Source of the DNA: an uncultured Actinomycetota bacterium
GTDB taxonomy: Bacteria > Actinomycetota > Acidimicrobiia > Acidimicrobiales > Bog-793
Length of the DNA: 64,000 nucleotides
Direction of reading: 5' to 3'
Assembly (NCBI GenBank): GCA_963758515.1
Contig: CAVWVO010000001.1
Span: 201,511-265,510, forward strand
Shown here: positions 20,927-37,224 of the stretch, one piece after another
How the letters are laid out: each line of letters starts with the position of its first letter
How positions within the stretch are numbered: the first letter of the stretch is position 1
Notes under the pieces: generated by a model
The model's database searches: none
What the model was told of the DNA's origin: nothing
What the model saw: only the letters and a program-made list of their open reading frames with translations
Program-made: the position numbers and the translations under genes

Positions 20927-22094
20927 ATGATGAGGGAGCCGTCACGCCGCCGGGCGCTTCGGCGAGTACGGCGGCCGCTTCGTGCCCGAATCGCTCGTGC
21001 CGGCGTGCGAGGAGCTCGAAGCGGCCTTCCGGCAGGCCTGGGGCGACCCGGCCTTCCGCGGTGAGCTCGACCGGTTGCTCCGGGAGTACGGCGGCCGGCC
21101 GACTCCAGTGTGGCGCTGCCGCCGCCTGAGCGAGCACCTCAACCTGCGCGTGTTGCTGAAGCGGGAGGACCTCTGCCACACCGGCTCGCACAAGCTCAAC
21201 AACGTCATCGGCCAGGCCCTGCTCGCCAAGCAGATGGGCAAGACCCGGCTCATCGCCGAGACCGGGGCGGGCCAGCACGGTGTGGCGACGGCGACGGCGG
21301 CAGCTCTGTTCGGGATGTCGTGCCGGGTGTACATGGGCGCGATCGACGTCGCCCGCCAGGAGCTGAACGTCTTCAGGATGCGGCTTCTCGGCGCCGAGGT
21401 CATTCCGGTCGAGGCGGGCAGCCGGACGATGAAGGACGCGATAAACGAGGCGCTCCGCGACTGGGTGGCGAGCCTCGAGACGACGCACTACTGCCTCGGC
21501 TCGGTCGTCGGTCCGAACCCCTACCCCTTCATCGTGAGAGAGCTGCAACGGGTCGTGGGCGAGGAGGCCCGCGGGCAGTGCAGGGAGATGCTCCGCGCCG
21601 ACCCGGACGTCGTCGTCGCCTGCGTGGGCGGCGGCTCCAACGCGGCGGGAACCTTCGCCGGCTTCGTCGACTCGGGCGCCAGGCTCGTCGGGGTGGAGGC
21701 CGAGGGCGGGGCGGCGACGAAACGGGGCATCCCGGGCGTGGTGCATGGCATGCGGTCGATGTTCCTCCAGGACGAGGACGGTCAGATCCTCGAGGCGGAG
21801 TCGATCGCAGCCGGCCTCGACTACCCGGGGATCGGCCCCGAGCATGCCTTCCTCGGTGAGATAGGGCGTGCGGAGTACGTAGAGGCGGGTGATGAAGAGG
21901 TGTTGGAGGCGTTCCGACTGCTCAGCCAGCTGGAGGGGATCATCCCTGCCCTCGAGCCCTGCCACGCCCTCGCCTGGGTGATCCGCGAAGCGGGACGGTC
22001 GATCCCCGCCCGCTCGAGCGTGCTCGTCACGTTGTCGGGCCGTGGGGACAAGGATGTCGACCTCGTCATGAGACGCCTGCATGGCCTCCGTTGA
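20927..22094 (+). CDS. trpB: Tryptophan synthase beta chain; frame break near 20944-20952
   Basis: Track ORF 20982..22094 (...[13 protein letters not shown]-Lys...ETGAGQHG...GGGSNAAG...). The conserved [13 protein letters not shown] upstream has no in-frame start. ATG 20927 (MMREPS) sits one frame off, and removing one C joins them. Confidence 0.9.
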
Positions 22095-22945
22095 GGGCGG
22101 GCGGCCCGGAGCGGCCGCGGGGAGCCCTCCCGCTGGCGGCACGGCGAGGGCCGGGTCGGCGGCCGGGCGGGGATCACTCGAGGAACGGCTGCGCGGGCAG
22201 AGGTCAAAAGGGCGGAAGCTGCTCGTTCCCTACCTGACGGGCGGCCTCGGTCCGGATTGGGTGGCCTGCCTCGAAGCGGTGGCCGCCGCCGGCGCCGATG
22301 CGGTCGAAGTGGGTCTGCCGTTCAGTGACCCGATGATGGACGGCCCGGTGATCCAGCGGGCGTCGGTTCTCGCGCTCGAGGCGGGGGCGACGTCGCTCGG
22401 GATCATCTCTGCGGTCGGCACGGCTGACATCGGGATCCCCGTCGCCGTGATGAGCTACTACAACGTCGTGGCAAGGACGGGCCACCACCGGATGGCACGC
22501 CAGCTCGTCGAGGCCGGCATCGCCGGGACCATCGTGCCCGATCTGCCCGTCGACGAGCTCGACGGCTGGGGCGACGCCGCCCGTGAGGCGGGAGTGGAAA
22601 CGGTCCTGCTCGCCGCCCCGACGACGCTCGAGGCTCGTCTCAAGATGATCGGGGAGAAGACGAGGGGTTTCTTGTACGCCATCGGCCTGATGGGGGTGAC
22701 GGGGGAGCGGGACGAGCTCTCCGCCGAGCGCGGCGGAGACAGCTCGGCGTTGCAAGCAGGTGACCGACTGCCCCGTCCTCGTCGGGATCGGCATCACGAC
22801 CCCCGCCCAGGCCGTCGAGGTCGCAGCTGTCGCCGACGGCGTCGTGGTCGGTTCTGCTCTCGTCCGGCGGCTGCTCGAGGGCGGCGGCCCCGAGGACGTG
22901 GCGGAGCTCGTGGCTGAGTTCCGCGCCGCTCTCGACGTTGCATGA
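22081..22945 (+). CDS. trpA: Tryptophan synthase alpha chain; frame break near 22727-22733
   Basis: Track ORF 22081..22917 (...LVPYLTGG...[22 protein letters not shown]...YYN...[12 protein letters not shown]) continues in 22760..22945 (...[18 protein letters not shown]...[11 protein letters not shown]). Confidence 0.85.
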
Positions 22946-30319: not shown

Positions 30320-31847
<1,528 letters not shown>

Positions 31848-33360: not shown

Positions 33361-34225
33361 GTCCCGCGCGGACAATGTAACGGGGCTCAAGCCTAGAGCC
33401 GAAGCTGCGGGCTCCTGCCTAGAGCAGGAGCGGTAGGGGAGCGTCGATCTTGCTGAGAAGCGGCGGTGGGAACCGTCGTGGAGCGTGATCGAGTGAGAAT
33501 GCTGGCATGAGTAGCGAGAGAGGAGTGAGAAACTCCTCCGCCGTAAGCCCAAGGGTTCCTGGGGAAGGCTAATCCACCCAGGGTCAGTCGGGAGCTAAGG
33601 CGAGGCCGAGAGGCGTAGTCGATGCACAACTGGTTGATATTCCAGTACCACCGTGTCCGCGCCCATTCCAATCCGGGGGAACTACGGGGCTGGTCTTCGG
33701 ACCGATCTGTTGGAACCCGAGGCGGACAGCAAAGGGGGGACGCAGGAGGATAAGTGAACCCAGGCGCTGGTTGTCCTGGGGGAAGCGTGTAGGGGGAGTC
33801 CTAGGCAAATCCGGGGCTCACATACCCTGAGACGTGATCCCGAGCCATTCCAGGCGAAGTCACTGAGTCCATGCTGCCAAGAAAAGCCCCTAGCGAGTTG
33901 GCACGGTGCCCGTACCCCAAACCGACACAGGTGGGCGGGTAGAGCATACCAAGGCGATCGGGAGAACTGTGGTTAAGGAACTCGGCAAAATTCCTCCGTA
34001 ACTTCGGGAGAAGGAGGACCTCGATAGGGTGACGGACTTCGCGTCCCGAGCTCGAGGAGGTCGCAGAGAATTGGGGGAAGCGACTGTTTACTAAAAACAC
34101 AGCAGCGTGCGAAGTCGTAAGACGATGTATACGCTGTGACGCCTGCCCGGTGCCGGAAGGTTACGGGGAGGGGTTAGTCCTTCGGGACGAAGCTCTGAAC
34201 CTAAGCCCCGGTAAACGGCGGCCGT

Positions 34226-34977
34226 AAAGACAAGTTGCGGCTCCGGTTGGGTAACCGACCGGATCAAACCCTGCTATTTGCTGGAAACCCCGTGTATCCG
34301 GCGGTACTCGTCCATGGTGGCGCTCTCGAGCGCTGTCACATCCTCTTCGTAGGGTGAGAGCCATGGGCAGTGACAATCCGTCCGGTGCGGACAATCAGCA
34401 GGAAAGGCCCAGTTCCTCAGACTGGTTGGATCGTGTCCCGTATGACCTGGGCAACTGGGTCGCGGGCTTCGTCGACGGAGAGGGGAGCTTCAACGTCCCC
34501 GTCCGTCGAGAGCGTGATCGCGGCTTGCCATGGCGAGTCTCGTTGTCGTTCAATGTCTCGCAGATCGGTCCGGAACTCCCTGAGCTCCTGAGGTCGGTCT
34601 TCGGGGTGGGAACGGTTCGAGGTCGTGGGGACGGCGTCTTCTACTTTGAAGTCACTCGTCCCGGGGCGCTCGCAGAGCGGGTCTTCCCGTTCTTTGAGCG
34701 CTTCCCACTGCGCAGTCCGAAGCGGACAGATCTTGCGATCTTCCGCAGATCACTGAGCTCATCCAGTCAGGCCGGCACCGTACGCCGGCGGGCATCGGAG
34801 AGATCCTCATCCTGAGGTCTCCGATGAACCGAGGCGGAAAGCGCCGGTACGACGAGCGCTACATCCTCGCCGTACTTGAGAGTTGGGAATCCTCAGAGGC
34901 CATACGCAGGGCTCCGTCTTTGAAGCAAGACGGATGAAGATATGGTCCACGCCCTATGGCGACATAGGGGTAACGGG
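34226..34977 (+). mobile_element. Group I intron after U1911 (E. coli numbering) of 23S rRNA, ORF-containing, 752 nt
   Basis: Exon ...ggcggccgT | intron ...taacggG | aactataacggt. Guide gcggct (34237-34242) pairs with exon GGCCGU including the U.G wobble. Q-like aatcagcagg, R-like tcagaggcc, S-like aagatatggtcc. The junction could formally slide by 1-2 nt (AA is ambiguous), but only this placement gives U(-1)/G(omega). Confidence 0.8.
34354..34937 (+). CDS. LAGLIDADG homing endonuclease (single-motif, I-CeuI-like), frame break near 34746-34749
   Basis: Track ORF 34354..34815: ...LGNWVAGFVDGEGSFNVPV...SLSFNVSQ...GVGTVRGRGDG...RVFPFFERFPLRSPKRTDLAIF. The -1 frame then continues ITELIQSGRHRTPAGIGEILILRSPMNRGGKRRYDERYILAVLESWESSEAIRRAPSLKQDG, with its stop at 34935-34937. 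The likely start is ATG 34363. Confidence 0.75.
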
Positions 34978-34989
34978 AACTATAACGGT

Positions 34990-35295
34990 CAACCCAGGCC
35001 GTGGGTAAACCTGGCTATATGCTGGAATCCCCGTGTATCCGGCGGTACTCGTTATCCATCCATGGCCTCTGGCCATAGATTGATGGCAGTGACAATCCGT
35101 CCGGTGCGGACAATCAGCAGGAAACCGCGTTGTACAGCGGGATCCTCAGAGACTGCACGCCAGGCCTGTCAGCCTTCGCTGGCGGTGAAGGTACAGTCCG
35201 ACCCTCGTGGCGACACGAGGAATCAGGCAGAAATGGCCTGATCACTCTTCGAAAAGGCTCGGGTAACTGAGCTCCAGAAGAGGAGTAACAACGTG
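34990..35295 (+). mobile_element. Group I intron after U1923 of 23S rRNA, ORF-less, 306 nt, paralogous to the 34226 intron
   Basis: Exon ...tataacggT | caaccc...aacgtG | cctaaggtagcgaaa. Guide gccgtg (34998-35003) pairs with exon ACGGU. It shares gctggaaNccccgtgtatccggcggtactcgt and ggcagtgacaatccgtccggtgcggacaatcagcaggaaa with the upstream intron. R-like tcagagactgca. Confidence 0.75.
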
Positions 35296-35350
<55 letters not shown>

Positions 35351-35603
35351 CGACTTCCCCACTGTCTCAACCACAGACCCGGCGAAATTGAACTACGAGT
35401 AAAGATGCTCGTTAGCTGCACCAGGACGGAAAGACCCCGTGGACCTTTACTGCAGCTTGATGTTGAGTTTTGGTACTGATTGTGTAGGATAGGTGGGAGC
35501 CTAGGAAGCTTCGGCGTTAGCCGGGGTGGAGGCAACCTTGAAATACCACCCTGTTAGTGCTGGGGCTCTAACCTCGACCCGTAAGCCGGGTCAGGGACAG
35601 CGT

Positions 35604-35675
<72 letters not shown>

Positions 35676-35859
35676 GTTGGCAATCAGCCGTCGAGTGCAA
35701 TGGCAAAAGGGAGCTTGACTGCGAGACCTACAAGTCGAGCAGGTGCGAAAGCAGGCCATAGTGATCCAGCGATTGCGTGTGGAAGCGTCGTTGCTCAACG
35801 GATAAAAGGTACCCCGGGGATAACAGGCTCATCTTCCCCAAGAGTCCATATCGACGGGA

Positions 35860-35905
<46 letters not shown>

Positions 35906-35906
35906 C

Positions 35907-35942
<36 letters not shown>

Positions 35943-35965
35943 TACGCGAGCTGGGTTTAGAACGT

Positions 35966-36684
35966 AGATCACTGCGTCCCCAGGGAGTAATCCCTGGGTG
36001 CTCACCGGCTCATATCGGTGGAACCCCGACTGATACACCCGAACTGTACGGTCAGGGCAATACCGAGGGAAGGCCAACACCGGTGAAAGTGTTGCAAGCG
36101 TCCTATGTTGCAGGATTTCTCGATGGCGATGGAAGTATCCACTTCCAGCTCGTCAAGCAGAAGGAGTATCGATTCGGGTACTACATCCGGTCGAGCGTCT
36201 CCTTCTCGCAGAGCACCTCCGCCAGAGGAGGCCTGGAGATCCTCCAGAGCCTCGTTGGCGGTGGCTACCTGCGGGATCGTGGTACCGGAATGAGTGACCT
36301 CGTTGTCACCAGCCGGCCGCTTCTGCTCGACTTGTTGCGCTCTCTCGAGCCGTTCGTGATCTTCAAAAGGGAGCACGTGCGGCGAGCTCTCGATCTGCTT
36401 CCCCGCCTTGGCGGGGTGCGTGATCCGGAGCGGTACCTGCAACTGGCACGTGAAGTCGACGCCTTTGCCACCCTAAACTATTCGAAGACGAAGCGGATAA
36501 CCGCCGTAGATGTTGAGCGACATCTACGTAGCATGGGAGTGTTGTGCCCCTGTAACGACTTCCTCGCTTGCCACAGCGGGGGGATGGCGTCAGAAGTAAT
36601 CATCTCACGGACGCCATGACACGCCGGCCCCTCGAAAGAGGGTGAAGGTATAGTCTATGCCCGTAGTAATACGGGAGTTTCATG
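35966..36684 (+). mobile_element. Group I intron at L2593 of 23S rRNA, ORF-containing, 719 nt
   Basis: Exon gggtttagaacgT | agatcactgcgtcc...gagtttcatG | cgtgagacagttcgg. Guide gcgtcc (35974-35979) pairs with exon AACGU/GAACGU. S-like aaggtatagtct near the 3' end. Same site as the Chlamydomonas chloroplast Cr.LSU intron. Confidence 0.85.
36083..36619 (+). CDS. LAGLIDADG homing endonuclease (single-motif, I-CreI-like)
   Basis: Track ORF 35918..36619 starts in the exon. GTG 36083 is 9 nt after gagggaagg. VLQASYVAGFLDGDGSIHFQL...GGGYLRDRGTGMSDLVV...LEPFVIFKREHV...ATLNYSKTKRITA parallels I-CreI YLAGFVDGDGSI...GVGYVRDRGSVSDYILS...LQPFLKLKQKQA...AALNDSKTRKTTS (from memory). Confidence 0.85.
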   Translation: MKVLQASYVAGFLDGDGSIHFQLVKQKEYRFGYYIRSSVSFSQSTSARGGLEILQSLVGGGYLRDRGTGMSDLVVTSRPLLLDLLRSLEPFVIFKREHVRRALDLLPRLGGVRDPERYLQLAREVDAFATLNYSKTKRITAVDVERHLRSMGVLCPCNDFLACHSGGMASEVIISRTP

Positions 36685-36826
36685 CGTGAGACAGTTCGGT
36701 CCCTATCCGGTGCAGCCGTAGGAGATCTGAGGAAGGCTGTCCCTAGTACGAGAGGACCGGGACGGACGCAGCTCTTGTGTGCCAGTTGTCTTGCCAAAGG
36801 CACGGCTGGTTTGCGACCTGCGGAAG

Positions 36827-37104: not shown

Positions 37105-37224
<120 letters not shown>

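Follow-up and report, generated by a model that had tools for sequence, protein, structure and literature searches.

The window, that is, the whole stretch of 64,000 nucleotides (nts) analyzed here, contains one rrn operon according to an rRNA model search within it, and no tRNA was found in the rrn spacer. The 23S gene is 92% identical to those of Acidimicrobiia-like genomes. Alignment to the bacterial LSU model, together with inspection by eye, located three inserts in this gene, after U1911, U1923 and U2593, and their coordinates are collected in Table 1 with those of the other features. When the inserts are taken out, the 23S gene is intact (2348 bits) with a spliced length of 3068 nts, and the 16S and 5S genes are intact as well. 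The identity of the 23S gene, its spliced length and the tRNA-free spacer suggest that the DNA probably comes from an Acidimicrobiia-like actinobacterium.

Table 1. Features of the rrn operon and of the inserts in its 23S gene, in positions of the window.
Feature	Position	Strand	Basis or remark
16S	30321-31841		rrn operon of the window
23S	from 32147		same rrn operon; full-length bacterial gene
23S exon 1, 3′ end, GGCCGU	34220-34225	+	H69 5′ strand, 1906-1911; P1 exon strand of intron 1
Intron 1, group I, after U1911 (L1911), 752 nt	34226-34977	+	exon boundaries, same-site homologues
Intron 1 internal guide	34233-34242	+	AGUU 34233-34236 (P10), GCGGCU 34237-34242 (P1)
Intron 1 P2 hairpin, CCGGUUGG-GUAA-CCGACCGG	34243-34262	+	strong compensatory covariation; no equivalent in intron 2
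Intron 1 single-motif LAGLIDADG gene	34363-34937	+	ORF list, three-frame translation, Pfam PF00961
Micro-exon, AACTATAACGGT (AACUAUAACGGU)	34978-34989	+	E. coli 23S 1912-1923
Intron 2, ORF-less group I, after U1923 (L1923), 306 nt	34990-35295	+	Rfam Intron_gpI, homologues
Intron 2 internal guide, GGCCGU	34997-35002	+	homologue alignment, pairing
23S exon 3	35296-35965	+	opens CCUAAGGUAGCGAAAUUCC (1924 onward); LSU alignment
Intron 3, insert after U2593 (L2593)	35966-36684	+	junctions GAACGT / ... / CGTGAGACAG
5S	37108-37224		same rrn operon

The first two inserts both interrupt helix 69 (H69), which spans 1906-1924, with a loop of 1912-1918 and a stem formed by 1906-1911 and 1919-1924 (PMC2602781). 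The first exon terminates as ...AACGGCGGCCGT at 34225, the base corresponding to U1911, and the downstream exon restarts with CCTAAGGTAGCGAAATTCC at 35296. The micro-exon left between them holds the entire H69 loop and five of the six bases of the 3′ strand. Its sequence, AACTATAACGGT, occurs only once in the window, where the chance expectation is 0 even with one mismatch allowed, and joining of the exon pieces as GGCCGU/AACUAUAACGGU/CCUAAGGUAGCG gives the universal H69 sequence. We also considered a twintron, which was rejected because the introns lie side by side with genuine exon sequence between them. The first-pass annotation had described a 12-nt H69 micro-exon with an intron on either side, and the exon boundaries bear out both its coordinates and its description.

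Same-site homologues of intron 1 were found in L001-L004, L030, L105 and about 40 metagenome contigs (three-digit handles denote matched sequences, and four-digit names denote insertion sites). The last base of the intron, G34977, is the omega-G, and a terminal G is present in all aligned homologues. GCGGCU of the internal guide forms P1 with the exon strand GGCCGU, with the wobble U34225.G34237 at the splice site, and the adjacent AGUU forms P10 with AACU (34978-34981) of the micro-exon; the earlier claim that the dodecamer serves as the 3′ exon of intron 1 is borne out. The P1 pairing, the U.G wobble and the terminal G are invariant in the ORF-less homologues (11 of 11). In addition, GTTGCGGC is present in all 45 of the L1911 introns listed, where the next base is T in 43 and C in two, and GUU of the P10 guide is kept in the same 45 of 45.

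The Rfam model Intron_gpI (RF00028) gave no match to intron 1 itself in the window, because the 575-nt reading frame divides the core. ORF-less L1911 homologues are called by the same model, with 65.5 bits for L139, 56.6 for L171, 55.0 for L236 and 53.8 for L211 against the gathering score of 50, and in L139 both members of the tandem are called side by side. The P5 region of intron 1 (~34312-34330) has an extra insertion of about 19 nts, GGTGGCGCTCTCGAGCGCT, which is a self-complementary hairpin; it is missing from L001, L003, L004 and L030, and a 3-nt remnant is present in L105.

The reading frame in intron 1 matches PF00961 (E 1.5e-13) with the motif NWVAGFVDGEGSF, and its PDB matches include the half-domains of I-SmaMI and I-OnuI, with E values down to 1e-31. 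Both ends of the gene, the first 12 and the last ~17 codons, overlap the ribozyme core. The frame is broken by the lack of one G within 34741-34751 (TTCCGC^AGATC versus TTCCGCGAGATC in five homologues), and a premature stop at 34813-34815 ends the uninterrupted frame. The read-through protein is 75-88% identical to many intact proteins of 191 aa and has 2767 relatives at E<=1e-10. The 1-nt deletion could be a real frameshift or an error of sequencing or assembly. Another disturbance of the L1911 endonuclease gene is seen in L030 (1032-1763), where a +1 insertion lies in the core-encoded N-terminus (AATCCGAGCCGG) and a compensating -1 follows ~80 nts past it, so that the frame is recovered after a scrambled stretch.

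Intron 2 is matched by RF00028 with 52.0 bits against the gathering score of 50 (E 2.6e-10). The match begins at 34946, as the model mistakes the end of intron 1 for P1, and the alignment of the P3-P9 core lies within intron 2. ORF-less homologues of intron 2 in related loci exceed the gathering score as well. The last base, G35295, is the omega-G, and all aligned homologues end with G. P1 is formed by GCCGU (34998-35002) and the last five bases of the micro-exon, ACGGU (34985-34989), with the wobble U34989.G34998. The first-pass annotation had named ACGGU as the P1 partner of intron 2, which agrees with our alignment, where all 40 homologues keep this pairing; the same holds for the U.G wobble at the 5′ splice site and the terminal G (40 of 40 aligned L1923 homologues). 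G34997, the first base of the guide, has two possible partners, C34990 of the intron before the first step, or C35296 of the exon as a 1-bp P10. A P10 of the form CCU/AGG was rejected, since the correct register permits only C35296-G34997. Some L1923 introns (L138, L148, L183 and L203) start with CCTAAT..., in which five bases copy the opening of the downstream exon (CCTAAGG). This look-alike of the exon directly after the 5′ splice junction may be relevant for endonuclease recognition or for the exchange of P1 and P10.

No I-CeuI-like endonuclease is encoded in the L1923 intron of the window, which is ORF-less. In relatives, L1923 introns of ~750 nts carry a LAGLIDADG gene at the very position that is empty in intron 2, indicating that intron 2 lost its gene. 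The L1911 and L1923 endonucleases are 40% identical, and I-CeuI is absent among the best 60 of the 96 PDB matches of the L1911 endonuclease.

The third insert lies in the same 23S gene, outside the H69 pair, after U2593, the I-CreI site. GAACGT ends at 35965, and CGTGAGACAG starts at 36685. The insert contains an apparently intact, I-CreI-like LAGLIDADG reading frame (~36083-36619) whose PDB matches include I-CreI and I-MsoI (E values of ~1e-21 to 1e-36), and Rfam made no group I call on it within the window. In L001 (4604-4630), the 23S reads GAACGT CGTGAGACAGT and then diverges, which suggests, from this sequence, an insert after ~U2604 in place of L2593. A site after ~U2604 is also listed for CPR bacteria (PMC11270868).

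The secondary structures of the two H69 introns were examined by covariation within each lineage. Among the 40 ORF-less homologues of the L1923 lineage, compensatory changes were observed in 40 of 72 predicted pairs, located in the P3, P5, P6 and P9 regions, and in the L1911 lineage compensatory double changes were observed in 28 of 74, located in P2, P3 and P6; the P3/P7 pseudoknot lies outside both predictions. The clearest covariation is that of P2 in the L1911 lineage and that of P3 and P6 in both lineages. P4 and P7 are invariant in both alignments and hence uninformative in this respect. Intron 2 is without P2, whereas P2 of intron 1 is well supported.

Introns 1 and 2 share an identical 40-mer, and a recent duplication or gene conversion would be one way to explain it. 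This was rejected, as the 40-mer is present, identical or nearly so, throughout the whole intron family and doubles as coding sequence for the N-terminus of the endonuclease (SDNPxGADNQQE), and as the two lineages differ at P7 and P3. The diagnostic P7/P3 sequences, GGCCAUACGC...AUAUGGUCC versus GACUGYACGC...AUACAGUCC, separate the lineages whatever the genome. Judged by these sequences, introns 1 and 2 are sister lineages, each specific to its site. The long-range P3 strands of the co-resident introns differ in 36 of 37 tandems and are identical in L139. We rejected an explanation of these differences as an adaptation, since they are a property of the lineage and the P3 strands of L139 are identical. 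The L1923 intron of L099, a delta-proteobacterial MAG, has a P7 of the L1911 type (GGCCAT...ATGGTCC), which hints that the two lineages have recombined or that this intron is intermediate between them.

A pattern scan of genomes, with one genome per species and blind to the state of L1911, yielded ~30 true L1923 introns among the matches listed, mostly from MAGs of Acidimicrobiia and other Actinomycetota. Among these same matches, the L1911+L1923 tandem is present in three of the ~30 species bearing an L1923 intron (L030, L105 and L122), and most of the species have no L1911 intron. A scan of metagenomes for the tandem junction gave at least 65 true tandems among the first 120 matches listed; the intron sequences of these tandems are diverse, and the samples belong to many different projects on soil and peat. 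The tandem is thus common in uncultured soil actinobacteria, and the window offers a new example of a known arrangement and not a one-off.

Other combinations were found as well. Alleles with L1911 only and with L1923 only both exist, loci found through the L1911 enzyme have L1911+L1931 with a 20-nt exon between them, and the pair L1923+L1931 is present in the relatives L060, L069, L077 and L093. The tandem is often accompanied by a third intron, at L1931. L105 and L122 bear one, and triples of L1911, L1923 and L1931 are found in L105 (OY970155.1), L122, L127, L158, L165, L166, L223 and L195, leaving consecutive micro-exons of 12 and 8 nts (CCTAAGGT). Among the tandems, endonuclease genes are full, partly deleted or absent, in both introns. 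L195 is the closest relative found by exon identity (96.5% in the exons versus ~82% in the introns), and in a single allele of it all three sites are occupied, the endonuclease genes of the L1911 and L1923 introns being intact. An excess of ORF-less L1923 introns in tandems (35 of 55 versus 6 of 23) was discounted because it is confounded by short metagenome contigs.

The recurrence bears on the question of whether the tandem was produced by an assembly artefact or chimera that fused two intron-bearing alleles. The window is probably derived from a metagenome, and a read error could account for the base missing from the endonuclease gene. Nevertheless, the same junctions are present in many independent assemblies from different projects and in contigs of RNA runs that span 34884-35025, and we consider such a fusion barely credible.

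The frequency of the tandem also bears on the relationship of the two homing sites. The first-pass annotation placed a ~26-bp I-CeuI target in this region, with the home position of the enzyme at L1923; this agrees with the known properties of I-CeuI, and the L1923 endonucleases of relatives match I-CeuI (2EX5, E 3.9e-11). From the location of both junctions within this string, the annotation went on to propose that each intron destroys the target of the other endonuclease, giving immunity or mutual exclusion and making the co-occurrence exceptional. The distribution does not bear this out. The tandem is present in three of the ~30 L1923-bearing species among the matches listed and in at least 65 metagenome contigs, and in L195 the endonuclease genes of both introns are intact and L1931 is occupied as well. 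Co-occurrence is common and extends to alleles in which neither enzyme is disrupted; the two introns are therefore not mutually exclusive, and exclusion is an improbable account of the locus. The geometry of the sites may be read in the same way. Position 1911 is presumably only the first base of the 26-bp string, and we assume that I-CeuI cuts 5 bp downstream of 1923, with a 22-bp footprint of roughly 1916-1937. A LAGLIDADG site of ~22 bp centered at ~1911-1914 would end at ~1922-1925, and a 22-bp site centered at 1913/1914, GGCGGCCGTAACTATAACGGTC, would be fully retained in the allele of the window because intron 2 starts with C.

From the anatomy, homology, guide pairings, covariation and recurrence described above, which are observed directly, we infer that H69 of this 23S is interrupted by two tandem, separate group I introns that splice themselves, with the 12 nts included and with no obligatory order. 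The probability of this reading is, in our estimate, about 0.8. Intron 1 would find its 5′ splice site through GCGGCU/GGCCGU and its 3′ exon through AGUU/AACU, and intron 2 would find its 5′ splice site through GCCGU/ACGGU, at the end of the micro-exon. The two P1 helices are predicted to be local hairpins that could form during transcription. The two excisions would be independent and could take place in any order, and ligation of the micro-exon to both neighboring exons would restore H69. The elements would have arrived by endonuclease-driven homing, and the allele of the window would be in the decay phase of the homing cycle, with its L1911 gene frameshifted, unless this is a sequencing error, and its L1923 gene cleanly deleted.

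The first-pass annotation had reached a different conclusion, namely that the two ribozymes compete for one short segment or must use it in turn, which implied an obligatory order of splicing or cooperative folding. We found no support for this. Positions 1-4 of the micro-exon take part in P10 of intron 1 and positions 8-12 in P1 of intron 2, with 3 nts between them; as these segments do not overlap, the introns do not compete for the same bases, and as each intron family is also found alone, neither depends on the other. An obligatory order or cooperative folding, in which the ribozymes would be unable to act independently on a 12-nt exon, is unlikely, though several points speak for it. The gap of only 3 nts from the intron 1 P10 to the intron 2 P1 may be too short for both cores to dock simultaneously, and steric interference or a preferred kinetic order is possible. 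The two guides are mutually complementary, with a fold energy of -8.6 kcal/mol that equals that of intron 1 P1, and tandem introns of Tetrahymena can cooperate (PMC10136302). Furthermore, in the fold prediction with intron 1 removed, the lowest-energy local fold is the H69 stem, which competes with P1 of intron 2 and sequesters its 5′ splice site, and the order of splicing may therefore affect the rate. However, every L1923-only intron always faces the same competition with H69, so that no obligatory order follows from the sequence. Both lineages also appear to function alone at their own sites in many genomes, the partner varies freely, L1911 being found with L1931, with L1923 or with both, and the difference of the P3 strands in 36 of 37 tandems disfavors a hybrid fold.

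The complementarity of the guides can be viewed in another way. The guide of intron 2 (GGCCGU) is identical to the 5′ strand of H69, which is the 5′ exon of intron 1, and is complementary to the guide of intron 1 (GCGGCU). The two introns interrupt opposite strands of a single hairpin, and in consequence each guide mimics the H69 strand that belongs to the other intron. Through these four-way, interchangeable pairings the tandem might be a coupled unit, in which a helix between the guides or an early H69 times splicing or prevents exon skipping. We regard such coupling as doubtful; if true, it would be a form of cross-talk between ribozymes that is so far undescribed among natural tandems of group I introns.

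RNA data were inspected for both the independent splicing favored here and its alternatives. In public RNA and DNA runs, the best match contained at most 15% of the sampled words, and at most 9% when only the introns were used as the query. Four metatranscriptomes from soil or peat showed huge depth at the exons and low depth at the introns of the region, a pattern in which, for community samples, spliced RNA is indistinguishable from intron-less relatives. Contigs of relatives assembled from RNA runs cross the junction of intron 1, micro-exon and intron 2 (34884-35025), indicating that the precursor is transcribed somewhere, if this is not carry-over of DNA. In the peat metatranscriptomes X26 and X27, contigs join ~34406-34413 to ~34883-34886; these joints represent relatives whose L1911 introns have undergone an exact deletion of the endonuclease gene, and the same is found in DNA contigs (L139, L171, L211 and others).

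These data also concern the removal of the whole 1070-nt block by exon skipping, or the rrn copy being a dead pseudogene. Exon skipping is documented for Coxiella and phage Twort (via PMC10136302), the L1911 endonuclease gene is broken, and a joint 34226>35296, with unreadable letters in between, occurs in run X4. However, the X4 joint is not assignable to the organism of the window, without the H69 loop there would be no bridge B2a, and the rRNA genes are otherwise intact. The splice elements and helices of both introns are conserved with covariation in dozens of divergent tandems, which is not as expected of dead copies. We therefore judge skipping or a pseudogene to be very improbable, and independent excision of the two introns remains the preferred reading.

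Group I introns in bacterial rRNA have long been regarded as rarities. The present results reveal a whole family of them packed into H69 of uncultured soil Actinomycetota (Acidimicrobiia-like), which occupies L1911, L1923 and L1931 singly, as pairs and as triples, with exons of 12 and 8 nts between the sites. The family offers natural material for the study of how tandem ribozymes avoid exon skipping, of the limit to which homing sites can be packed, and of the decay of endonuclease genes while the ribozymes persist. In practical terms, such inserts break the annotation of 23S genes and the mapping of reads in soil metagenomes.

The literature searched, which left out much of the subscription literature, yielded no group I intron at L1911, and on this basis the site seems undescribed for group I introns. 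The only intron recorded at position 1911 in the literature searched is a group II intron in the mitochondrial rnl of Gloeotilopsis planctonica, and this intron contains a LAGLIDADG ORF (Turmel et al. 2016, PMC5630911). It resembles intron 1 in that rRNA position 1911 holds a LAGLIDADG-bearing intron, but it is group II and organellar, whereas intron 1 is a group I intron on a bacterial chromosome. Intron 2 shares its insertion site with CeLSU.5, the I-CeuI intron of the Chlamydomonas chloroplast at L1923, and differs from it in having no endonuclease gene.

Very short exons between group I introns have been described in other 23S genes. In Coxiella burnetii, Cbu.L1917 and Cbu.L1951 flank a 34-nt exon (Raghavan et al. 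2007, via PMC10136302), and some skipping of this exon is reported there. As in Coxiella, two putatively self-splicing group I introns surround a very short exon of a bacterial 23S; unlike those of Coxiella, which belong to different subgroups (IB2 and IA3) and lie at other sites, the two introns of the window are closely related to each other. The archaeal contig KP308720.1 has introns at LSU/1923 (21440-21763) and LSU/1931 (21772-22514), both of IB4, the subgroup in which Nawrocki et al. (2018, PMC6125680) place introns at L1923 and L1931. Like the window, it has a tandem pair of group I introns at H69 that includes L1923, and its micro-exon is even shorter (8 nts), but its host is archaeal and the partner intron is at L1931 instead of L1911.

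A further known system is the 23S of Synechococcus sp. C9, in which L1917, L1931 and L2593 are occupied by group I introns (Haugen et al. 2007, PMC1995217). Both are bacterial 23S genes with three group I introns of the LAGLIDADG type, L2593 included, both have two introns in or beside H69 with a micro-exon between them (14 nts in C9), and in both the endonuclease ORFs extend into the ribozyme core. They differ in the sites, which are L1911 and L1923 with a 12-nt exon in the window and L1917 and L1931 in C9, and in the state of the H69 introns, which in the window are one ORF-less and one with a broken ORF. The host differs as well, being a cyanobacterium in the case of C9 and an actinobacterium-like soil organism in the case of the window.
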